This document shows, one piece after another, positions 3 through 64,000 of a stretch of 64,000 nt of DNA (positions are counted from its first letter, which is position 1; every line of letters starts with the position of its first letter). A program made the position numbers and the translations under genes. This DNA is from a virus, in the IMG/VR virus record IMGVR_UViG_3300032223_001832, positions 8,419 through 72,418 of that record. One strand, written 5' to 3'. The notes beneath the pieces are model-generated. The model had not been told where the DNA came from. It searched no databases and saw nothing but the letters and a program-made list of their open reading frames with translations.

Positions 3-236
3 GTCCCAACAGATAACGATAAAGCTATCTCTATCTCAGTTATTCAAGTTCAGGGTGCAACAGGTTACATCCCAAGCACATTCCAGATTGATGGCGCAAG
101 CCAGACAATCAAGTGGGCTGGTGGCTCTGCTCCTTCACCTACCTCTACATCGGGTAAGCTTGATATCTTCAACTTCTCACTGCTACGTACAGGTAGCGCT
201 TGGATTGTTCTCGGCTCAGCTAACCTGAACTACTAA
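3..236 (+). CDS. 3' end of a tail fibre / virion structural protein (5' truncated by the window)
   Basis: Frame 3 reads VPTDNDKAISISVIQVQGATGY...IKWAGGSAPSPTSTSGKLDIFNFSLLRTGSAWIVLGSANLNY*. The W-x-GG-x-AP...D-IF-x-F tail is typical of phage fibre C-termini. Confidence 0.6.
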   Translation, partial: VPTDNDKAISISVIQVQGATGYIPSTFQIDGASQTIKWAGGSAPSPTSTSGKLDIFNFSLLRTGSAWIVLGSANLNY

Positions 237-254
237 TTAAAAGGAGAATAGCAA

Positions 255-1226
255 GTGCCATTCTTCGCTTCAGAACGCTACATAGGCGGTCTTCTTGGTC
301 GTGGCGGTGGTATTAAGCCGTACCTAAACCGACAAGTAATTACTCGCGGCTACCTTGCTGCTGGGTATAAATCTTCTGTAACTTGGAAGAACGTTGGGTA
401 TGTTGACGCATCCAATGACACTTGGACAAGCCTTGGTGATTTACTAGGTTCTGGCGGCGGCTATGTTGGTGGTAACCACGATTTAAACATCCACTATGTG
501 TGGGGTACCTCAGCTACTATTCAAACTAATACAGCCAACTACTCTAAGTACAACATGCGTACGCACGTAGGTACTGGTGACGCAACTGGCCCAAATACTT
601 GGATGGATGCCGAAGGTATTCAAGACAATAACCTTTTAACAGGTGGCGCTAATAAGTTCTGGGTTGTGTCTAGCGGTGCTACTGTTATTTCACGCTATGA
701 CACATCCAGCAACACCTTCTCTTCAGGATTAACCACAGGTTACGCTTCAGCAAACTTTACTGCTTACCATTATGGAGAACAGTGGGGATATTGGTGGGGA
801 GCTGCTCCAGACACTACAGCATCTAACCGCCTTAAGTTTGTTTACTCTACTGAAACCCAATCTACTCCATCTAACTCTCCTGCCTCAGAAGCTACTCAAA
901 AGGGTTGGTCATCTAAGCTAGGGTACGGTTACGGTGGAAACACTGGCCAAATTACAGCTCGTAAATGGAGTTATGCTACAGAGTCTGTGTCATCAACTGT
1001 TAACAAGCCTATTACCTCTGTAACCGTTCAAGAAGAGAACTTTGATATGGGTCAAGACCACAACTACATGCTAGGCATGTACGACGGCACTAACGGTGTT
1101 CAAAACAACAGAGCGTGGCGTTGGAACTATGCTACAGACTCTGGTTTTGAAGGCAGCTCAAGTATGCAACCTTCTGCTTCTGGTATTGCTGGACGTTCAT
1201 CTGGCGATTGCGCTTGGAGAAACTAA
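255..1226 (+). CDS. Gly/Ser/Thr/Tyr-rich beta-repeat virion-associated protein, paralog 1
   Basis: AGGAG RBS and GTG start; follows the fibre gene; strong block similarity to the next ORF (EENFDMGQDHxYMLGMY, QNNRAWRxNYxTDSG, GRSSGxCxW). Confidence 0.6.
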   Translation: MPFFASERYIGGLLGRGGGIKPYLNRQVITRGYLAAGYKSSVTWKNVGYVDASNDTWTSLGDLLGSGGGYVGGNHDLNIHYVWGTSATIQTNTANYSKYNMRTHVGTGDATGPNTWMDAEGIQDNNLLTGGANKFWVVSSGATVISRYDTSSNTFSSGLTTGYASANFTAYHYGEQWGYWWGAAPDTTASNRLKFVYSTETQSTPSNSPASEATQKGWSSKLGYGYGGNTGQITARKWSYATESVSSTVNKPITSVTVQEENFDMGQDHNYMLGMYDGTNGVQNNRAWRWNYATDSGFEGSSSMQPSASGIAGRSSGDCAWRN

Positions 1227-54469: not shown

Positions 54470-55061
54470 GCATACGCCTTCATCTCATCTTGCGAGAGAA
54501 GTATGAAGCGGTCGCCATCAAGGTTCTTGCGTGTCTTAATCATAGGCAGACTTCCTATTAAGGTAGCCCTGCTTAGGTACATAGAGATATTACGATAGTA
54601 TCGTGGTAGCAACCGCTCTCGCTCACGCTATACCCTAAGCAGGGTTACAGGGTTTTGATAATCTCTTACTAACGATACAAGGAAGGCTATATGCGGTCTA
54701 GTACCTTTCACATACTAAGACAATGGCGATTTAAGTAGTCCAATCTTTTCAGCGACACAGTTACTAAGATTAGTAACTCCGTAGTATGCGTAATACCGCT
54801 AAGTCGCGCCCACACCTAACACTTATTGCCTTACAACCTATTCGTTAATAGGATTATCAAATCTATTTAGTTATCAAATATATTGGTGAGACTAGGTACA
54901 GCGTTTGTCGTATCCGTTGCGGATTATAGGCTACGCCTTCCCCCGTCTTTTCTCGCGGTCTGACTATCGAGGGCTTTCTCTTTCGAGAATTGTCTCTAAG
55001 TGCTACGGCACATAAGCGGTCGGGTCTGACCTATCCTAGCCTCACCAATTCTATTTAGTTA
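54470..55061 (-). ncRNA. Putative large structured non-coding RNA, or a tandem set of structured RNAs
   Basis: Closing stems 54882-54896/55035-55049 (G-U on the - strand), 54654-54663/54852-54861 and 54567-54577/54634-54644; internal hairpins including UUCUC-GAAA-GAGAA; no credible ORF. Confidence 0.6.
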
Positions 55062-56046: not shown

Positions 56047-56330
56047 TAGATAATTACCCTTCTGTTGTCCTCTAGATAGAATAGATAGTCTTTGGCTACC
56101 TTGATTAAGTTAATAAGATTATCGCGCTCGATTTCGGGTGCTTCTAATCCGTCTTGGATACGCACTAGGATTTCTTTCATCTTGTCGGCGTAATCTGTTT
56201 TGACTACTGTGATTAGAAAGTCGTCATTGTTGGCGTAATCGTCGTATTCTGTTTGTGTTGGCGGTACGCAGGTATGGTTTTCCCATAGTCCTGCCTTAAT
56301 CTCATCACCGCAACTATTACATTGAGCCAT
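56046..56330 (-). CDS. Hypothetical protein with CxxC..HxC
   Basis: AAGGA RBS; TAATG coupling. Confidence 0.65.
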   Translation of the reverse strand: MAQCNSCGDEIKAGLWENHTCVPPTQTEYDDYANNDDFLITVVKTDYADKMKEILVRIQDGLEAPEIERDNLINLIKVAKDYLFYLEDNRRVII

Positions 56331-58234
56331 TAGTGTTCCTTTCTTGCGAGAGTGGATTTAACTAGGTCTGTCGCTACTTCTAGGACATCTCTAGGCTTTG
56401 CGATAGCGCGGAATATCTGTGCGCCATGTCGTAACTCGGCGAGCATACGGCGATAGTAACTACCACTATCATCTGTTGCGAGTGAGCCTTCGACCCATGA
56501 CTTGTATTGCTGATAGTCGCTCATAAAGACTACGCAGGTAAGTATGCCTTTAGCGTTGAGGCGTTTAATAACCTCATCACACTCCTCTGTATTACTCCAT
56601 TGTCCGTCTGTTACGGCGAATAGGATTTTAATAGACTTAGTGCTTGCCTCTAGTACGCGCTCGGCTTCCATGAGACCGCGTAACGGGTCGGTTGAGCCTC
56701 TTGCGAATATATGTCTGAACGAGCGTGGCTTGGCGTTATCTAATTTATTATAGAGTTCGCTACTCTTATCGTCGAACGCATATACCGATACGCTTCCGTT
56801 GATACTTTCGATACCGCGCTTGATTACCCACGCATTTTGGCAGACATCACGCATATATCCACCCATTGACCCACTATGGTCTAATAGCATTACCGCTTCT
56901 ATATCGGTGTTGTCGTTGCCTGTATCCCAAACATCAAACATCTCACTAATACTATTAACATCAGGGTTCATGGTACGAGAGATATTTAACTTGCCACTTG
57001 GCAGGTGAGTATTCCACGCAGGGTCATTGTCTCTGACCATGCGCTCTAACTCTTGACCAAACTTACGAGCGTAAGTAATCGCCGTTGCTTCGGGTTGGCG
57101 TTCATCATATTGGCTAGGCTTAATAACCGAACGAATATCATCATCACCCTTGATAGCCTTACGGGTCTCATTGACCTCGCGCTTGACCGCCTCGTTGTTG
57201 CGGATTTCTTTCATGCGCTCGTTAATCTTATTAGCAACCGCTTCATCATCTTGGGTATATTTATTCTCGGTCTCATTAAATTGGTCGTTAGACCCACCGC
57301 TTGTAAGACCTGCCTGTAAGTTCTCGCTAGGACTATTATCCTGCTTCTCGGCTTTTTCCTGTAACTTGGCTTGGTCTTTGCCATTGGCAGGGCGACCTTT
57401 AGTTAGTACGGGGCGTGGAGTACCGCCACCGCAACCGCCTTCGGGAGACTTGCGTGGTCGCTCGGTATCTGTACCTACGAGTTCTGCGAAGCGAGTGATT
57501 AGTTCCTTAGCCTTATCGAAGTCGTCGGGGAATACGAGACCGCGATAGGAGTGGACAATATCGCTAATAACACTAGCGACCTCTACGCCGTACTTACTAA
57601 TAAACTTATCAGCGACCGCTTGGCGTAGGTCAATATCGAGATACTTGCGACCCGTTATGACGGGAAACATATCAGCCCACTCGCTAGGGTCGCCTTTGAG
57701 TGCGTAATCCATAGCGGTAGCCTCTAGGAATAACCGCGTACTTGGGTACTTGGCTATCATCATTTGTTCGATACGGGCTTCCTCTAGCATATTGTATGCG
57801 CGAGTAACCTTATTATCCTTAACGAATTGACCTAGATTAGACCCTGCGCGTGGTGAGAATAGAATATGCGCGACCTCATGGTAGTTAGTTCCATGAAGGC
57901 TAGTAATAGTCTCGGCATTTAAGTCCTCGATAAGATTAGCATTGTAGATAATCTCGCGCCCATTGTTTGTTGCGGGCGTGTTCATCTCCTTATCGTTCAC
58001 TACTGTTACCGATATATCCTCGCCTGTAATAATCTTATCGGCGGTCTGATAAACGCTACCAATACTATCTAGTTCATTGGCGCGAGTAACATAGCCCTCT
58101 AGGAGTTGGGCGCGTGTGCGACCAAACTCGTCAAGGAAGCCTAAGAAGTTGCCTTCATCATCTCGCTGATACGACCCTGCGGAATAATAGACCTCATTAA
58201 AGAAGTCGTGGCTGTGATAAGGAGACCTAGCCAT
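56330..58234 (-). CDS. VWA-domain protein with N-terminal HExxH metallopeptidase-like domain (CobT-like)
   Basis: HEVAH..N.LEE.RIE; MIDAS DHSGSM, T, TDG. Confidence 0.85.
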   Translation of the reverse strand: MARSPYHSHDFFNEVYYSAGSYQRDDEGNFLGFLDEFGRTRAQLLEGYVTRANELDSIGSVYQTADKIITGEDISVTVVNDKEMNTPATNNGREIIYNANLIEDLNAETITSLHGTNYHEVAHILFSPRAGSNLGQFVKDNKVTRAYNMLEEARIEQMMIAKYPSTRLFLEATAMDYALKGDPSEWADMFPVITGRKYLDIDLRQAVADKFISKYGVEVASVISDIVHSYRGLVFPDDFDKAKELITRFAELVGTDTERPRKSPEGGCGGGTPRPVLTKGRPANGKDQAKLQEKAEKQDNSPSENLQAGLTSGGSNDQFNETENKYTQDDEAVANKINERMKEIRNNEAVKREVNETRKAIKGDDDIRSVIKPSQYDERQPEATAITYARKFGQELERMVRDNDPAWNTHLPSGKLNISRTMNPDVNSISEMFDVWDTGNDNTDIEAVMLLDHSGSMGGYMRDVCQNAWVIKRGIESINGSVSVYAFDDKSSELYNKLDNAKPRSFRHIFARGSTDPLRGLMEAERVLEASTKSIKILFAVTDGQWSNTEECDEVIKRLNAKGILTCVVFMSDYQQYKSWVEGSLATDDSGSYYRRMLAELRHGAQIFRAIAKPRDVLEVATDLVKSTLARKEH

Positions 58235-59654
58235 TTATGCGCTCGCTCTCGTTAATAGGATTATGATAGGAAGTAGTTACTGCCTGACCTAGTTCCTCTG
58301 CGAGATTATCCTTGTGTGTCTCACACGCAAGGCGAACACCGCCACGCTCATCTTTAGTGAAGCCATTGGTGAACGAAGTGATAGCGAAGCCCACGCCGAA
58401 GTTCTTGGCGTTGCTCATAAACGATACGAGCGAACGGGTTGAGATAGGGGTTGAGATTTCCTCTTTTTCGTACTGCTCACGAAGTTGGTCGGCTAGTGTT
58501 AGTAGCGAACGAGACTTAATAATCTTATTCTCGATACTGCGGTCATAAGGAAACTCTAACTTGATACCGAAGCGGTCGCTGAACGCTTGGTTAAGTTCCT
58601 GTGTGCCTTTATAGCCGTAGTTCATGTCGCCCACGATAAGGAGATTAGGGTGAGCCTTGATAACCTCTCCACCATTTTCGAGAAGTTGGATTTCTCGGCG
58701 ATAGTCGAGCAGGGAGAATAATACTGTTGAGATACGAACGGGAAGGAAGTTAATCTCGTTAATAAGGAGTACGCCACCATGTCTGACTAATAGTGTTACT
58801 GCGCCGTCTTGCCATTGGTAGCCATGCCCGTCTGCGCGTGGTATCCAACGACCGAATAGTTGGCTTGGGTCAATACCCTGATTAGACGAGATATTAAAGT
58901 AACGCATACCGCGCTTGGAAGCGTAGCCCTGAACGCTCATAGTCTTACCTGACCCTGCCTGACCTTCGAGCAGGATATTAGTATTATCTTTGAGTGCTTG
59001 GTCGTAGATTTCCCACTCGGTTACGCCGTCAAACCTGCGGTTAATATAGTTATCGCCGTATTTCTTGTCGGGTACGCTAATCATATTGAGAGACATCTCG
59101 TCAATAGTCTTATTAAGCATAGTCATTTCGACCTTCTCGTACTTCTCGACTTCCACGACTTCTCGCGTCTCGGCGATTTTTGGCGTTACACCCTCGGTAG
59201 GCTTACTAATAGCCTCGATAGTAATATCGGCTGTACCTGTGGCTGTGCGCTTGTCGGTAACATAGTCGGCGAGTGCTTGGTCGCCTTCTAGGAGTTGTAG
59301 CCCTAATAGTGCTACTGCGTTCTTGTGAGCCGTCTGCGCGGTGGCAGGTTCAGCGTTCTCATTGGCGTAGATAGCCTTATTTGCGATATTGGTAATCTGT
59401 CCTAGTCCTACTAAGGCTAGGTCGCGCTCTGTAACGATAATGCCTACGGGCTTGGAGATAATAGGGCTATCAGGGAGTTTATAGAGTTCATCACTTGCTA
59501 GTCTTGTCCATGCCTGTCCACGACCCTTTGAGCCGTTGGAAGTGCGGTGGTAGATATGAACCTCGCCATTGTGTCCGAATAGGAGAGATTGCGAAGTGGC
59601 AGGAAGCCCGTCTAGTGGCTCTGCCTCGCTCTCTACGAATAGTGCTATGGTCAT
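58227..59654 (-). CDS. MoxR/CbbQ/CobS-like AAA+ ATPase
   Basis: GQAGSGKT, W.DG, LLINEIN, N..Y.GT..LN.A..DRF, STR.L. Confidence 0.88.
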   Translation of the reverse strand: MTIALFVESEAEPLDGLPATSQSLLFGHNGEVHIYHRTSNGSKGRGQAWTRLASDELYKLPDSPIISKPVGIIVTERDLALVGLGQITNIANKAIYANENAEPATAQTAHKNAVALLGLQLLEGDQALADYVTDKRTATGTADITIEAISKPTEGVTPKIAETREVVEVEKYEKVEMTMLNKTIDEMSLNMISVPDKKYGDNYINRRFDGVTEWEIYDQALKDNTNILLEGQAGSGKTMSVQGYASKRGMRYFNISSNQGIDPSQLFGRWIPRADGHGYQWQDGAVTLLVRHGGVLLINEINFLPVRISTVLFSLLDYRREIQLLENGGEVIKAHPNLLIVGDMNYGYKGTQELNQAFSDRFGIKLEFPYDRSIENKIIKSRSLLTLADQLREQYEKEEISTPISTRSLVSFMSNAKNFGVGFAITSFTNGFTKDERGGVRLACETHKDNLAEELGQAVTTSYHNPINESERING

Positions 59655-59775
59655 TGGTCTTGCCTCTCTAGTGCGCCGTTGGCGCGGTTATCGGGAATTA
59701 CCTTGTTGTATCCCCTAGTGAGAGAAGTCTTGCCTAGTTCTTATTAGAAAGCAATACGAGGGTGGATTTGGTAAC

Positions 59776-59792
59776 TCTCAGATAACTCTCAG
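59776..59792. promoter_or_regulatory. TCTCAG-N5-TCTCAG direct repeat upstream of the AAA/VWA operon
   Basis: TCTCAGataacTCTCAG; candidate -35 TTGCTT on the - strand at 59749-59754. Confidence 0.6.
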
Positions 59793-59938
59793 CCTTCTTA
59801 TCAGATACCTCTCCTCTCTCCTAAGCCTATTATCTGGTCGTACAACCGATTAGCGATTTATCGACATTTGGCAGTAGCCGATTTCGCATAGCATAGGTCG
59901 GTGGCGGAAGTCAATAGCGGGGGAGTGTGATTTGGCTC

Positions 59939-60126
59939 TCTCAGGTAACTCTCGGCTCTCTCTCAGGAGACTCTCAGACACGCCCGACCGCGTGGTATGT
60001 TTGTGTTGGACAAATAGCGAAGCTATTTGCACATATTCCGAAGGAATATGTAACATTCCGAAGGAATGTACATTTGCAAAGCAAATGTGAGGCAGACACG
60101 GCCTTGCCGACTGCCGACACAAACAT
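59939..60126. repeat. Intergenic module copy 1 (4 TCTCAG-type units; IR-bracketed array of 4 palindromes)
   Basis: Units at 59939/59950/59961/59972; ATGTTTGTGTTGG (59997) ... CCGACACAAACAT (60126). Confidence 0.85.
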
Positions 60127-60205
60127 CTGCGCTCGCAAACAAAATAGCCCTAGCAGACACGCCCATGTCTACTAAGGCTATTTGGTGGGGTTTGGCAATT
60201 ACGGC

Positions 60206-60532
60206 TTATGTGGCTCGATTAGTCTCACCCACAAGTGCTTCGGTAGCCGACCAAACTACTTCCGACTTTTCATTTAAGACGAGTTTCCCCTCGAACCACT
60301 TGGGGTCAGGCACTCCATAAAGGAGTGTTTCTAGTGATACCTCATAGAACTCTGCTAAGCCTATTAAGTTTTTAATGGAAATTGCGCGGTCTCCGCGTTC
60401 CCATGAGCCTACTACAACGGGCTTCCATTTGCCGTCAGAGAGGATACCCACTTCTTGTAGGGTCAATCCCTTGATTTTTCGGACAATGCGTAGGTTCTTT
60501 CTAATACTATCTACTGTTGGACTACTCATCAT
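60206..60532 (-). CDS. XRE-family HTH regulator closely resembling the BldD DNA-binding domain
   Basis: LR.VR...GLTL..V...S.GKWKPVVVGSWERGDRAI....L..LAEFY.V....LL. Confidence 0.8.
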   Translation of the reverse strand: MMSSPTVDSIRKNLRIVRKIKGLTLQEVGILSDGKWKPVVVGSWERGDRAISIKNLIGLAEFYEVSLETLLYGVPDPKWFEGKLVLNEKSEVVWSATEALVGETNRAT

Positions 60533-61055
60533 CAGCCACTTCCGACAACAACTCTTGGATAGTTTTATCGCCAATCTTACCTTCTGCTAAGGCTATTGGG
60601 TCTAATTTGGCAAAAGACTCGGTAGCGTCAGTATCTTGTAGGAAGGCGGTAGCCAATGGTGGTAGTGAGCGGTCATTATTAGCACACAACGCGCCTAGCA
60701 TACCTGCTAGACCGAACATGGCTGTCGTCTGACCTGCGCCCCATAAAACATTAAGGGCGATAGCAAGTGCGTCGAGGTCGTCCTTACTAGGACTATGTTC
60801 CTCTGTACTGCGGATATTAGCGAGCGCGCTATTGGTAAGACACGCTACTAACTTAAATTGGAACTCCCTGTCCTCGCGGAAGGCTTGGCAGAGAATAGCG
60901 TTACGAAGGCGGGAATTAGAAAGCCCCTTAGTATTATTAGGGAACACCCAATCTTGCGCCTGTTCTGCGGTTGGGTCGTCTCCGTCCATATCAACACTAG
61001 GAAGCATGGAGATAGCCGACATCAACTCGCTAAAGCGGTACTTTGCGTCTAACAT
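60522..61055 (-). CDS. Helical hypothetical protein (weak DUF4192-like resemblance)
   Basis: LRNAIL...A...W..G...LA pattern; own promoter upstream. Confidence 0.6.
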   Translation of the reverse strand: MLDAKYRFSELMSAISMLPSVDMDGDDPTAEQAQDWVFPNNTKGLSNSRLRNAILCQAFREDREFQFKLVACLTNSALANIRSTEEHSPSKDDLDALAIALNVLWGAGQTTAMFGLAGMLGALCANNDRSLPPLATAFLQDTDATESFAKLDPIALAEGKIGDKTIQELLSEVADDE

Positions 61056-61101
61056 AGGTCTGTATTACTCATCTCTCGGGGGGTCTGACCCGATAAAGCC
61101 A

Positions 61102-61130
61102 AACCTACTCTCTCTGTAACTATATGGCAA
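61102..61130 (-). promoter_or_regulatory. Sigma70-type promoter
   Basis: - strand TTGCCA-N17-TAGGTT. Confidence 0.6.
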
Positions 61131-61151
61131 CTCTCATAACTCATTTATAAC

Positions 61152-61300
61152 TCTCAGGTTTCTCTCAGGAAGCCAATTGTTTGTGTTGACCAAATGCTTC
61201 GCATTTGTCACATTTACGAAGTAAATGTACATTTGGTACAAATGTTACGTCGCTGGCCGCTCCGACACAAACCTTATCCACAGGTCCAAACTGTGGATAA
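61152..61300. repeat. Intergenic module copy 2 (TCTCAG pair; 3 palindromes; 2 DnaA boxes)
   Basis: TCTCAGgtttcTCTCAG; GTTTGTGTTG (61179) ... CGACACAAAC (61272); TTATCCACA 61274, TGTGGATAA 61292. Confidence 0.88.
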
Positions 61301-61303
61301 GTG

Positions 61304-61329
61304 GAGCGGGGGCGACCAAACCCCCGCTC
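61304..61329 (-). terminator. GC-rich hairpin after a gene (terminator-like, no U tract)
   Basis: GAGCGGGGG-N8-CCCCCGCTC. Confidence 0.4.
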
Positions 61330-61340
61330 AGTTGGTAGTC

Positions 61341-61526
61341 TTAGGCAGCGCTACCAAGACCGCAGGCTTCTAGAAACTTCTGTTGGTCAAAGCGGTCGTT
61401 TTCCTGAGCAAAGACGCCTGATAGTGCTAGCGCTAGGTCGCGAAGGCTGGGGGTGAACCCAGCCTCCTGACCTTCCTTCATTGCCTTAATAACACTAGCG
61501 AAGGCGCGGTAATCCTTGCGGGACAT
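61341..61526 (-). CDS. Conserved small phage protein (M.RKDY...N.RFD..KF..AC type)
   Basis: Recognisable motif; TAATG coupling. Confidence 0.75.
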   Translation of the reverse strand: MSRKDYRAFASVIKAMKEGQEAGFTPSLRDLALALSGVFAQENDRFDQQKFLEACGLGSAA

Positions 61527-62011
61527 TATTCGACTTCCTCGGCTGAGTAGTCGAGGTTATCGTTGATAAGGCTGGTTAGGTCGATGGCGTATGAGTTGTC
61601 ATCAGTTGAGCCGTAACCTGAATCACCTTGTGAGTTAAGTGTAAAGTTGAGTTCGATGTCGTCGATTTCCATATCCTGCTCAACCATTTCGCACGCTTCC
61701 TCGTCAGAGTCTGCCTCGACCTCAACGTCCATAACGTGGTTGCTGAAGGCGGATACGGAGACAATAAACTTAGTAGCGATGGAGTCAATCGGGGTAATCC
61801 CCGCAGCGTCGCAAATCTTATTTGCGAGTTCGAGTGCGTCCTCACGGGACATGGTGCCTTCTTGGGCTTCAGCCTTAAAGATGTTCTTTAAGACCTCGCG
61901 GAAACTAGCCTTAGTTTCCTCAGTAGTGCGTTCGGTACGAATCGCTAACAAGCGGTCGTGGTCCTCTCGCTGGATACAACCCTGAGGGGTTGTAGTTTCG
62001 GTTGTGGTCAT
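61526..62011 (-). CDS. Highly acidic hypothetical protein
   Basis: GAGAGG RBS; VEVEA.S.EEA motif. Confidence 0.7.
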   Translation of the reverse strand: MTTTETTTPQGCIQREDHDRLLAIRTERTTEETKASFREVLKNIFKAEAQEGTMSREDALELANKICDAAGITPIDSIATKFIVSVSAFSNHVMDVEVEADSDEEACEMVEQDMEIDDIELNFTLNSQGDSGYGSTDDNSYAIDLTSLINDNLDYSAEEVE

Positions 62012-62051
62012 TGGTGCCTCTCTCAGGGGGGTCGGACCCTGCGATAGGAGT

Positions 62052-62081
62052 ACTCTATTAAAGAATCTTTACTCTCCGCAA
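62052..62081 (-). promoter_or_regulatory. Sigma70-type promoter
   Basis: - strand TTGCGG-N18-TAGAGT. Confidence 0.45.
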
Positions 62082-62102
62082 CTTTGGTAACTCTATTATA
62101 AC

Positions 62103-62246
62103 TCTCAGGTAACTCTCAGCCAGGAATGTTTGTGTTGAACAATATGCTTCGCATATTGTAAAAGCATGTCCTCGTCCTTCGTCCTCGTCCCGACACAAAC
62201 TTTTTCCACAGAGTTATCCACAGGCTGTTGATAGCCTGTGGATAAC
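62103..62246. repeat. Intergenic module copy 3 (TCTCAG pair; 1 palindrome; 3-4 DnaA boxes)
   Basis: TCTCAGgtaacTCTCAG; GTTTGTGTTG (62128) ... CGACACAAAC (62200); TTTTCCACA 62202, TTATCCACA 62214, TGTGGATAA 62237. Confidence 0.88.
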
Positions 62247-62258
62247 CTGCGCCTAAGA

Positions 62259-63260
62259 TTACGCGGAGACCAACCCGCGTACCGCGGAGAGAATACGAGC
62301 CTTCTCGGTATTCACTCCAGCCTCGAAGCCACTAGCGGCTGCAAGGATTCCCTCGTTACCGCCGCGACCCTCGCGGTAGTAGTCCACGCGCTCGGTGAGC
62401 GCGTTGAGCGCACCCCATGCGGTGCCAGTGATACCCGTCTGGGTAGGGGATGAAAGATAGAGCCCACGTGTGAGGTCGAATTTCTTCTCCCAGAGAGTGG
62501 TCGCTCCCTTGGAATCTGCCTCGGGCTTAGGGTAGAGCGCCTCGAAAAGGTTATCGAATTGCTGGTTAGTAATTGAGGTCTGGAAGAGTTCCGTAGCCAT
62601 ATCCTCAAAGGCGTCCATGTGAGCCATGGTGAGACCTAGCACGCGTTGAGCCTCGGCCACGCGTCCCTCGGTCTTTTGAGTGTGGCGCACCTTGAATTGC
62701 TGCTTGGTGCCAGCGAGCGCCATGTTGAGCGTATTTTGGCAGACTACGCGCACTGGGGTAATGCACGCTTGGATTGCCGCGCTACCATCGTGTGAAGAGG
62801 TAACGAGAAGATACGTTTTGGTGGTATCCGCGATTCCCTTAGGGTCGAGGATGAATTCGCGAGGTACGGCGAGAGAGCCAAATACTTGGCGTCCCTGCTT
62901 GATTGAGCCAGCGGATTCCCATGTGGCTCCGCCGTCGGTAAGATTGTCACCGAATGAGAATAAATCCTCATTTTGGTATACGCGATAGCGGTCTCCGACG
63001 GTCGCGAGAATATCGGTTCCGCCGTCGAATGGATTGGTGCGTGTGACCATAAAGGTCTCGGAGATTGCGCGATACCCTGCTGGGTACACGACTGGCTCAA
63101 GAGAGACATTCCAGTCGTTGAGTTTTGCGGCGTCGAGCATGTCGGCGGTCGTAACGTGCGCGTCCTCATCAAAGAGGACATTCGCAAGACCGTGCCATGC
63201 TGGCGCGCCACGTAGAGCGAAAGCGGTTTCCCCGCCTTGGCTCTCGAGGTTATGTGCCAT
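62259..63260 (-). CDS. DUF932 / TIGR03299-family phage-plasmid protein
   Basis: MAH..E...AWHGL, Y...QN, AGS...G..VF, SHDGS, TPVRVVC.NTL, RHT, GTAWG..NA..E..D; GAAAGG RBS before the ATG at 63260. Confidence 0.85.
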   Translation of the reverse strand: MAHNLESQGGETAFALRGAPAWHGLANVLFDEDAHVTTADMLDAAKLNDWNVSLEPVVYPAGYRAISETFMVTRTNPFDGGTDILATVGDRYRVYQNEDLFSFGDNLTDGGATWESAGSIKQGRQVFGSLAVPREFILDPKGIADTTKTYLLVTSSHDGSAAIQACITPVRVVCQNTLNMALAGTKQQFKVRHTQKTEGRVAEAQRVLGLTMAHMDAFEDMATELFQTSITNQQFDNLFEALYPKPEADSKGATTLWEKKFDLTRGLYLSSPTQTGITGTAWGALNALTERVDYYREGRGGNEGILAAASGFEAGVNTEKARILSAVRGLVSA

Positions 63261-63349
63261 TTCTTGCCTTTCGTAAGGTGAGCGGATGCCCACGTGCCAA
63301 TACTAGCGACGTATCTTCTAATAAGATAGTTTGGTAACTCTTAAATAAC

Positions 63350-63485
63350 TCTCAGGAAACTCCCAGGTTGGAAAATGTTTGTGTCGACAAAATGCGTAGC
63401 ATTTTGGTAAAGCCATATCCCACCCCCCACCCACCGCTCAACACAAACTTTATCCACAGGGGGCTGTGGATAAAGCTGTGGATAA
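63350..63485. repeat. Intergenic module copy 4 (TCTCAG/TCCCAG pair; 1 palindrome; 3 DnaA boxes)
   Basis: TCTCAGgaaacTCCCAG; GTTTGTGTCGA (63377) ... TCAACACAAAC (63448); TTATCCACA 63450, TGTGGATAA 63465 and 63477. Confidence 0.88.
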
Positions 63486-63830
63486 CTATGCGTGGTCGGT
63501 CGCGTAGTTCATGAAGAATTGGACTTCCTCATTGGATAGTCCTAGCGTTTCGCCTTCCTCATCGCATGAACCAGTGATTACGACATCCCCGACCATGACA
63601 TCAGAGAAGCCATACATGCTTGCCCAGAGAAGAGTGGCAACCGCGTTGAATGGTAAGCCTATTACCTTGCCTTCCTCGTTGAGCCACATGTCCGCGAAGT
63701 TTTTATCGCGAAGAGTAACGCACTCGATGAAACCACCGACTGCCTCGCGAAGCAGGGGATAAGATTCCCCTGCCTCAAACTCGACAACTTCCCGACTATC
63801 GTCGGTGCGAATGATAACTGCCTTATGCAT
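63486..63830 (-). CDS. DUF3846-family protein
   Basis: L..AVGG.IE, NEEGK..GLP.N..AT, VGDVV.TG..D..G. Confidence 0.8.
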   Translation of the reverse strand: MHKAVIIRTDDSREVVEFEAGESYPLLREAVGGFIECVTLRDKNFADMWLNEEGKVIGLPFNAVATLLWASMYGFSDVMVGDVVITGSCDEEGETLGLSNEEVQFFMNYATDHA

Positions 63831-63963
63831 CTTCACCCACGCCCCAATCTTCGCAAACGCCTTGGACTGCGTCGTTTAGGTCTGCGATTAGTAGTTCCAA
63901 CTCATCAGGCGTAATGCCTGCGCACTGCTCGCTTGTTAGCGATGAAGACCAGACTTTGGTCAT
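63823..63963 (-). CDS. 46-aa acidic peptide (not in ORF track)
   Basis: MTKVWSSSLTSEQCAGITPDELELLIADLNDAVQGVCEDWGVGEDA*; AAGGGG RBS. Confidence 0.55.
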   Translation of the reverse strand: MTKVWSSSLTSEQCAGITPDELELLIADLNDAVQGVCEDWGVGEDA

Positions 63964-64000
63964 TTGGTACCCCTTCGTTAGTAGTGTTATTAAGTTGTAA

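Follow-up and report, generated by a model that had tools for sequence, protein, structure and literature searches.

A conserved-arm palindrome in composite modules at gene boundaries of uncultured ~95-kb myoviruses

Architecture of the four modules and their genes

The stretch of DNA analysed here, referred to as the window, comprises 64,000 nucleotides (bases 8419-72418) of the 72,418-nt IMG/VR record IMGVR_UViG_3300032223_001832, which is rated 76% complete and whose contig end coincides with the right end of the window. The window is a fragment of a ~95-kb myovirus, the closest cultured phages being the BRock-type Streptomyces myoviruses with ~38% amino-acid identity, and the presence of a WhiB-like protein suggests that its host probably belongs to the Actinobacteria. 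Toward the right end, four boundaries between minus-strand genes (59771-63485) share one composite architecture, whose motifs are nearly absent from the remainder of the 64 kb. On the minus strand each copy presents in turn the stop codon of a gene, a hairpin, the 10-nt arm GTTTGTGTYG, a spacer rich in G or in G+C, between one and four perfect A+T-rich hairpins with 3-nt loops and 7-9-bp stems, the second arm CRACACAAAC, about 10 nt, GAGTTAY-type units (two to four) repeating every 11 bp, and then the next gene, whose start codon is preceded by ~60-90 nt containing a GAGAG-rich ribosome site and a weak stretch resembling a promoter. The portion delimited by the two arms is termed the bracket. 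The original prediction, made from the letters of this stretch alone, had placed four modules with this order (read on the plus strand) at these boundaries and had noted the lack of DnaA boxes in the first; on both counts it was borne out.

All genes at the modules belong to a block transcribed from the minus strand, to which the following coordinates refer. The first gene in the order of transcription encodes a DUF3846 protein (63486-63836), and copy 4 begins directly after its stop codon with three exact DnaA boxes (63450-63485), the inner inverted pair of which forms a hairpin (63450-63473; dG -12.1) ending 1 nt before the 5' arm. The bracket of this copy (63377-63448; arms 63439-63448 and 63377-63386) contains one perfect hairpin (63388-63406) and a spacer rich in G on the minus strand, and is followed by three GAGTTAY-type units with the 11-bp period (63334-63366) upstream of the DUF932 gene (62259-63293; start at 63293). 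Copy 3 comprises two inverted exact DnaA boxes (62214-62222 and 62237-62245) forming a 13-bp stem, an additional box with one mismatch (62202-62210), a bracket (62128-62200) with a purine-rich spacer of GACGAG repeats and one perfect hairpin (62139-62159), and three GAGTTAY units with an 11-bp period (62087-62119), beyond which lie, at 61341-62011, the genes for a 161-aa protein (start at 62011) and a 61-aa protein. Copy 2 opens with a G+C-rich hairpin (61304-61329) preceding an inverted DnaA-box hairpin (61274-61300), which, with the 5' arm as its tail, is the only one among the four copies to be flagged as terminator-like by the scan; its bracket (61179-61272) has a G+C-rich spacer and three perfect hairpins (61191-61207, 61210-61228 and 61229-61245), and its phased GAGAG/GAGTTAT units (61129-61170) stand upstream of the genes, together spanning 60206-61055, for a 177-aa protein (start at 61055) and an HTH_3 protein. 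In copy 1, the hairpin after the stop codon of the HTH gene (60142-60183) is followed by TGTTTG, lacks a DnaA box and is unrelated to those of copies 2-4; the bracket (59999-60124) has a G+C-rich spacer and four perfect hairpins (60011-60029, 60031-60051, 60053-60069 and 60070-60088), and is succeeded by four phased CTGAGAG-type units (59935-59977). The four-boundary description thus holds for the architecture, and is to be extended by a second GAGTTAY pair of copy 1 (59771-59792), located 117 nt upstream of the start of the AAA_5 ATPase gene (58227-59654), which in turn precedes a gene with a weak VWA match (56330-58234).

In the entire 72,418-nt record the bracket pattern GTTTGTGTYG...CRACACAAAC occurs exactly four times, at the above-described positions, and the reversed-pattern control not at all; no other arm in the window has a partner with up to one mismatch. 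All four copies are of a short-stem type, in which the outer stem is only 10 bp and encloses the spacer and small hairpins. Of 16 perfect palindromes in the window (stem of at least 7 bp, 3-nt loop), nine lie within the 365 nt of the four brackets, and simple shuffles of the window yielded 4.5 palindromes on average and 10 at most.

The DnaA boxes are similarly concentrated. Seven of the ten exact boxes TTATCCACA fall within 2.2 kb (61274-63485) as against three in the other 61 kb, and 29 boxes with up to one mismatch were found in the window where 14.5 are expected, a count reached in 0/100 shuffles. In copies 2-4 they take the form TTATCCACAG-N4-7-CTGTGGATAA, an inverted pair that makes up the stem of the terminator-like hairpin abutting the 5' arm, and only in these three copies does a DnaA-box cluster stand beside an A+T-rich region. 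The boxes of the original prediction are hence present, with their description amended to that of inverted, hairpin-forming pairs. The six exact AACTCTCAG sites of the window all lie at 59773-63355; Tandem Repeats Finder returned a repeat period of 11, and GAGTTAY-N4-RAGWKWY has five matches as against 0.06 expected, all on the minus strand and at modules. The possibility that the GAGTTAY and GTTAT units are low-affinity DnaA sites was considered and dropped, as by eye they agree at 4-7/9 positions and in the wrong orientation. Promoter signals at the modules, as judged by eye, are limited to the weak TTGCCA-17-TAGGTT and TTGCGG-18-TAGAGT, and the sole consensus-like promoter match within a bracket (61205-61233) is on the plus strand, opposite to the genes.

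A few further features of the region were observed. The AAA_5 gene has a 344-nt leader (59655-59998), containing the second GAGTTAY pair and a GGCTACTGC motif common to relatives, which could represent a small RNA or a long 5' untranslated region. A GGGTC(A/C)GACCC palindrome with a C-run occurs on the minus strand just before the ribosome sites that follow copies 2 and 3 (~61085-61100 and 62030-62045). The sense strand of the copy 4 spacer (63409-63436) carries GGTGGGTGGGGGGTGGG, and the last modules of relatives carry the near-complementary ACCCACCCACCC, for which G-quadruplex formation or long-range pairing is possible. Elsewhere in the window, a 447-nt gap between minus-strand genes (54612-55059) contains TTTGATAA repeats without a bracket, and 48271-49728 matches a PHROGs queuine tRNA-ribosyltransferase family (phrog_887), possibly DpdA-like, which hints at 7-deazaguanine modification of the phage DNA. 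Structural proteins were recognised in the form of a tail sheath and of a tape-measure-like protein that bears a lysozyme domain, and RecA, a class II ribonucleotide reductase and a weak RuvC-like match were also identified; a scan of the window for tRNAs and tmRNAs returned none.

Placement, companions and gene re-sorting in related phages

A search of IMG/VR with the exact bracket pattern and a 45-75-nt interior recovered 99 stretches from 55 distinct contigs, with about five loci appearing to be chance occurrences (L005, L031, L061, L080 and L081, excluded from the family counts); across family elements the interior ranges from 39 to 122 nt. Five relatives were considered as genomes (G000-G004), of which four are complete, at 95.7-98 kb, and the fifth is 91% complete. 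They contain 4, 4, 3, 3 and 5 exact brackets respectively, in a single 4-5-kb cluster per genome, with no occurrence of the reversed pattern, and in one of them a compensatory arm variant accounts for two additional copies. Among prokaryote genomes totalling 596 Gb, 102 stretches match the pattern against a rough chance estimate of ~67; the excess comes from a Sphingomonadaceae repeat unrelated to the bracket and from a conserved coding stretch of Nitrospirales. These genomes gave no sign of a host element with the bracket and, with matches at about the chance level, the bracket appears to belong to phages rather than to the host chromosome. The unrelated repeat, seen in Sphingopyxis and Sphingomonas (L115, L120-L121, L124-L125, L127-L128 and others), is 67-76 nt long and has the same 10-nt ends (GTTTGTGTCGAGCG...CGCTCGACACAAAC).

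The modules are placed with considerable regularity. Among 111 unique modules 71 sit between co-oriented open reading frames (ORFs), and in 51/66 family modules a stable hairpin ends within 12 nt before the 5' arm, as compared to 16/66 on the mirror side. The distance from the 3' arm to the next start codon, callable in 48/66, has a median of 123 nt and an interquartile range of 113-147. This placement suggests that the bracket fills the gap between the terminator of one transcription unit and the control region of the next, and we are fairly confident that the modules mark unit boundaries.

The genes between the modules have been re-sorted in the course of evolution, as was anticipated by the original prediction, which had asked whether they vary as cassettes. 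Gene maps of six genomes (the window and the five relatives) show that the DUF932 gene is bracketed on each side in all six and that the AAA/VWA gene pair comes after the last bracket in four (the window and 3/5 relatives), with the small genes and families between the brackets differing or changing units. For instance, DUF3846 precedes DUF932 in the window and follows it in G002, and families F8 and F6 are separated by a module in the window and adjacent in G002. The bracket itself is a discrete unit: in orthologous elements conservation equals or exceeds that of the flanks (in one case 93% for the element against 88% and 87% for the flanks), and the notion of a hypervariable interior was rejected on this basis. 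In L025, a close relative, an ECF-type sigma gene (Sigma70_r2 and r4_2; 69-596, minus strand) follows a window-like module, with no homologue in G000-G004. The Streptomyces phage LukeCage (L211, 1-5945) displays its own repeated intergenic motifs at each small gene around DUF932/DUF945, and has no bracket.

These patterns raise the question of mobility. Integron attC sites, REP/BIME elements and miniature inverted-repeat transposable elements (MITEs) combine short conserved inverted ends with a variable structured interior. The bracket, with its 10-bp terminal inverted repeats around a variable structured interior, a ~60-140-nt spacing comparable to theirs and a location between genes of one orientation, might by analogy be a miniature inverted-repeat or an attC/REP-like folded site by which cassettes spread and are swapped. 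One clean presence/absence polymorphism, the varying gene content between copies and the tendency of the assembled contigs of related strains to break at modules, with short-sided joints and varying interiors, would be in line with such an element. Nevertheless, we regard it as decidedly improbable. The PF00589 tyrosine recombinase is found in 0/5 of the relatives and in 14/14 control genomes, and the PF01797 Y1 transposase in 0/5 and 6/14 respectively, which sets the bracket apart from integron systems on the one hand and from REP/RAYT and IS200/IS605 elements with their Y1 (HUH) transposases on the other. Further, by eye comparison with the consensus, the arms (GTTTGTG...CACAAAC) do not fit the attC core RYYYAAC/GTTRRRY. 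The likeness to MITEs extends to the terminal inverted repeats and one empty site, but no target-site duplication was seen by eye. Unlike all these elements, the bracket is restricted to one cluster per genome rather than dispersed, and is not above approximately chance level in host genomes; nor do its orthologous copies evolve faster than their flanks.

DnaA boxes are the commonest companion of the bracket, with their side and the type of phased repeat varying by lineage. A box lies within 120 nt of the bracket in 40/66 oriented family modules. The box falls on the promoter side in 34/66, usually reading CCTGTGGATAAC and following the 3' arm by 2-27 nt, and on the stop-codon side, the arrangement of the window, in 9/66. 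The exact order seen in the window is found among the 66 modules only in its own three copies, and outside this set in two further contigs (L025 and L078), so the order of parts, whose conservation in relatives the original prediction had made a test, is not the norm of the family. The GAGTTAY repeats of the window are represented in many relatives by GTTAT at the same 11-nt period and in others by TGTGA-N6-TCACA palindromes.

An independent view is provided by 82 loci fetched through the DUF932 protein alone. Of these, 72 lack a bracket with canonical or GTTTGTGCTG-type arms in the scanned windows, a count that is slightly too high owing to four loci cut by contig ends and mis-windowed, and some of them carry other arm versions. 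Upstream of DUF932, at least one exact DnaA box is present in 64 loci, an inverted pair in 41 and a CRP-like palindrome in 32, and in the loci read the DnaA and CRP-like sites precede a clear TAGACA-17-TATAAT-type promoter. This suggests that the DnaA-box pair is the older and wider part of the promoter region and that the bracket is an addition in some lineages; it also indicates that the host-factor sites are integral to these regions, as had been proposed. CRP/GlxR-like TGTGA-N6-TCACA palindromes stand in place of the GAGTTAY repeats in L108 and in the 32 DUF932 loci (within L213-L294), lying, in those read, between the inverted DnaA pair and the promoter. In three complete relatives a perfect host-type parS, GTTTCACGTGAAAC, adjoins the bracket (L104 8337-8350, L105 5443-5456 and L107 9711-9724); the window has no parS with up to two mismatches. 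A literature search found no functional study of DUF932.

Two readings that centre on the host-factor sites have to be weighed at this point. The first holds that the modules are origin-like or priming elements, at which host DnaA and adjacent transcription would open the A+T-rich palindromes and the phage DnaB helicase and primase would start replication; the DnaA-box hairpin and the multi-hairpin array could additionally serve as single-strand initiation signals. Promoter-linked origins are known in T4 and T7, and the modules do combine DnaA boxes and phased direct repeats with A+T-rich palindromes and a G+C-rich block. The phage has a DnaB-like helicase, a DnaG-like primase and a family A DNA polymerase, with no recognisable initiator among the 67 ORFs scanned, and parS beside the bracket in three relatives mimics a chromosomal origin region. 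Against this stands the number of copies, 3-5 in each genome, and their placement, each fitting exactly into the interval from a terminator to a gene start. In addition, copy 1 is devoid of DnaA boxes, the boxes switch side between lineages and, in relatives lacking the bracket, they occupy ordinary positions upstream of promoters beside CRP-like sites; a DnaA-trio-like element was looked for by eye and none was seen. We therefore consider an origin function improbable. The second reading, that of a decoy array whose DnaA boxes (and parS or CRP sites in relatives) would mainly soak up host regulators as phage DNA accumulates and so shut down host replication or transcription, draws on the clustering of exact boxes noted above and on the substitution of different global-regulator sites at the same position in relatives. 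In phage T5, a non-coding early region is described that has eight conserved DnaA boxes among repeats and palindromes (bioRxiv 10.1101/866236). Titration needs no fixed positions relative to promoters and terminators, such as these sites have, and leaves the bracket and the phased repeats unexplained, making this the most improbable of the readings considered.

Arm pairing, covariation and the level of action

The two arms of the bracket pair with each other in 71/71 minimum-energy folds. In 46/104 unique elements the arm stem is prolonged by at least 6 perfect base pairs, for which 36 different sequences are used, and positions 12-19 each show 3-4 Watson-Crick pair types, far above slid controls. 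Two forms of the element can thereby be recognized, namely a long-stem form and the short-stem form with a spacer and small hairpins. The arms themselves also change in a compensatory manner. The version GTTTGTGCTG/CAGCACAAAC is found in nine unique elements, other lineages among the 82 DUF932 loci have GTTTGGGTTG/CAACCCAAAC or GTTAGGTTGG/CCAACCTAAC, and in one contig GTTGAGTTGG/CCAACTCAAC occurs in 4/4 copies, each behind a terminator hairpin and T-run. As these compensatory versions come from loci found without the exact-arm bias, we are fairly confident that arm pairing is under selection, which agrees with the earlier proposal that structure is selected while primary sequence drifts.

The arm version (GTTTGTGTTG, GTTTGGGTTG, GTTAGGTTGG or GTTGAGTTGG, depending on the lineage) is mostly uniform within one genome and differs between lineages, and in one genome the same arm duplex occurs in both orientations relative to the loop. 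Together, these features argue for a sequence-specific reader in addition to structure, and suggest a trans factor that reads the arms. The HTH gene beside copy 1, a phage HTH protein having been put forward as a potential binder of the modules, has no homologue among the ORFs of the 13-14-kb regions of the five relatives, and is accordingly a poor candidate for a family-wide reader. An interior motif GCTTT was evaluated as a conserved feature and rejected, being present on the sense strand in 19 and on the antisense strand in 15 of 62.

Whether the bracket acts as DNA or as RNA can be addressed through strand asymmetry. G:U pairs account for 111/1931 pairs on the sense strand (5.7%) and 86/1882 on the antisense strand (4.6%), so that nearly all stem pairs are Watson-Crick and neither strand is favoured. 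In DNA hairpins, GNA triloops have unusual stability, and GNA or its complement TNC makes up 16/24 distinct 3-nt loops (9 on one strand versus 7 on the other), against a chance rate of 1 in 8. These features, along with the location of the bracket behind a terminator, favour a DNA-level structure, and action at the DNA level is accordingly the more likely alternative.

A boundary cassette, its alternatives and its parallels

Given the above observations, each site is best explained as one modular boundary cassette, akin to the PeSL (promoter-early stem-loop) cassettes, which would separate short, probably early, transcription units of ~95-kb myoviruses by means of a terminator, an insulator and a host-factor-driven promoter; our confidence in this interpretation as a whole is evenly balanced with our doubt. 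The first part of the cassette would be a factor-independent terminator, with the 5' arm (GUUUGUGUYG) as its U-rich tail, an assignment of which we are fairly confident, and with, in the window, two inverted DnaA boxes as its stem. The second would be the self-complementary insert closed by pairing of this arm with CRACACAAAC, which may act on DNA as an extrudable hairpin or cruciform, its conserved basal duplex being read by a lineage-specific factor, and may insulate one unit from the next. The third would consist of the DnaA boxes together with the GAGTTAY repeats, whose 11-bp phasing is of a type to which activator dimers bind in tandem. These host-factor sites, which likely control the downstream promoters, would feed a weak promoter for the host RNA polymerase, with the 3' arm ~110-150 nt upstream of the next start codon. 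As the cassette recurs every ~1 kb, it also offers homology through which genes may be reshuffled between copies. For the palindrome in particular, our preference is for an insulator or switch that a lineage-specific factor would read, followed by RNA processing or antitermination and, in third place, by an origin-like function. The anatomy of the modules and its conservation, the pairing and covariation of the arms, the placement and the re-sorting of cassettes are shown by the sequences; termination, promoter activity, DnaA binding, DNA-level action and insulation are all inferred from them.

Several observations weigh against this interpretation. A sigma-70 consensus scan of the minus strand at the modules, which does not cover actinobacterial promoters, gave no match of at least 9/12. 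Since they fall below this threshold, the minus-strand promoters of the original prediction are kept as putative, and the strongest support for its host-factor-driven early promoter comes instead from the wider DnaA-box pair of the DUF932 loci. The invariance of the arms in the main set is partly by construction because its loci were fetched with the exact pattern. One relative is precisely without the last bracket, its flanks being 99-100% identical to those of a bracket-bearing relative, which implies that the bracket is dispensable for the adjoining terminator and promoter at that site. Certain features have a polarity: ACCCACC occurs in the spacer 11 times in the sense and once in the antisense direction, unpaired bases average 5.4 nt after the 5' stem versus 1.7 nt before the 3' stem, and some elements of relatives fold much better in the sense than in the antisense direction by virtue of G:U pairs (for example, -28.4 vs -11.1 kcal/mol). 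Perfect stems could moreover reflect template-switch correction of quasi-palindromes without selection on DNA structure, for which reason DNA-level action is held as the likelier option and not as settled. Finally, no candidate arm-binding protein was identified, no search for proteins co-varying with the arms having been made.

The polarity of the spacer and of the unpaired bases relative to transcription would equally fit an RNA-level element, in which read-through transcripts fold the bracket into a long hairpin that serves as an RNase III-like processing site, a fail-safe terminator or 3'-end protector, or a nut/put-like antitermination signal acting via a phage protein. RNase III-like processing sites are found between the T7 early genes. 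The 20-26-bp perfect stems of the class-A elements, the gain of 7-17 kcal/mol on the sense strand via G:U pairs in some relatives' elements and the covariation of the arms are compatible with such a role, as is the A+T-richness of the DnaA-box hairpins of the window, which may terminate poorly. Yet the bracket is preceded by a hairpin and U-run in 51/66 modules, G:U pairs are used sparingly overall and to almost the same extent on the two strands, GNA triloops are seen on both, and the 10-bp outer stem of the brackets in the window is too short for RNase III. A search of 59000-64000 against Rfam with a permissive E-value also yielded no family at the gathering threshold, the lone match being Gut-1 (RF01706; 60020-60095, minus strand) with 32.7 bits against a threshold of 50. 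On the whole, an action of the bracket primarily as RNA appears unlikely.

In terms of logic, the closest match to a boundary cassette of this kind among known systems would be the PeSLs of T4-type phages, which are composite terminator/promoter repeats bordering variable early genes and mediating their shuffling (Arbiol et al. 2010, PMC2839356; Comeau et al. 2014, PMC4122927). Both are small cassettes repeated at the borders of short early genes in plastic regions, and in both the gene content between copies is re-sorted among relatives; gene reshuffling through cassette homology might hence operate here as it does with PeSLs. The stem-loop terminator of PeSLs has its counterpart here as a sequence feature (51/66 modules, with copy 2 flagged by the scan). 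The differences are substantial. A PeSL, as described in these papers, combines a sigma-70 promoter of consensus type with a single G/C stem-loop, whereas the conserved-arm palindrome, the DnaA boxes and the phased direct repeats are features of the present modules only; there are ~50 PeSLs per genome as against 3-5 copies here; and the phage family and host phylum differ, with unrelated motifs and no sequence similarity (PMC2839356).

The non-coding repeat regions of the T5 first-step-transfer DNA (Davison 2020, bioRxiv 10.1101/866236) offer a parallel for the combination of elements. There, a conserved non-coding early region contains spaced inverted repeats, palindromes, direct repeats and consensus DnaA boxes, and is, in a lytic phage, better conserved than the adjoining genes. 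It is one large terminal-repeat region rather than one cassette per gene, its DnaA boxes are paired 3 bp apart inside inverted repeats, and its proposed role of stopping DNA injection is hypothetical. Similarly, the Frpo/ssi single-strand promoters of plasmid leading regions are folded-DNA elements repeated before the first-entering genes, but carry the -35/-10 hexamers in the Frpo stem and act on incoming single-stranded DNA (Samuel et al. 2024, PMC11541004). The stems described here contain no gene-directed -35/-10 hexamers, and a tailed phage delivers double-stranded DNA.

A parallel from a double-stranded DNA phage is provided by the promoters of the N4 virion RNA polymerase, which lie in intergenic early DNA as short hairpins with loops of 3 nt. 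The hairpins of the window, with their 7-9-bp stems and 3-nt loops, resemble them. They are, however, situated upstream of the bracket arm, 110-150 nt from the gene, and are not conserved in sequence; nor is there a giant ORF here, the longest listed being 1189 codons. The PF00940 single-subunit RNA polymerase was detected in 0/5 of the relatives, the control genomes likewise being without any match.

A description of the cassette itself was not found in the literature searched, the arm strings matching only primers and unrelated papers and a search on intergenic DnaA boxes of actinobacteriophages bringing up nothing relevant, so that the palindrome appears to be undescribed. Taken with the Rfam result, this agrees with the earlier view of a conserved and undescribed cis-acting composite, the bracket of which a scan of the whole record and of IMG/VR has now placed in 55 contigs.

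A further reading goes beyond the boundary cassette, and we advance it tentatively as a doubtful though possible one. The bracket might supply the cis-acting half of a phage control system not described so far, in which a hairpin or cruciform, its basal duplex read by a lineage-specific phage protein, is wired to the sites of host origin proteins (DnaA here, ParB parS as well as CRP in relatives) and so lets the phage sense or hijack the replication state of the host. Such an input would switch all the early units together or start phage replication at these sites.

The early region of an uncultured phage tends to be a list of small genes that defies reading, and an easily searched cis-element that marks their boundaries in at least 55 viral contigs provides a handle on how such phages organise their first minutes in the cell. 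By joining a terminator U-tract to a complementary arm and changing by lineage, the palindrome becomes a candidate for a new protein-hairpin recognition pair, and the bracket a possible insulator part for actinobacterial synthetic biology. The regular occurrence of consensus DnaA boxes, joined in relatives by CRP-like and parS sites, suggests that early transcription in a broad group of phages, whose hosts are probably Actinobacteria, is tied to the regulators of host replication and growth.

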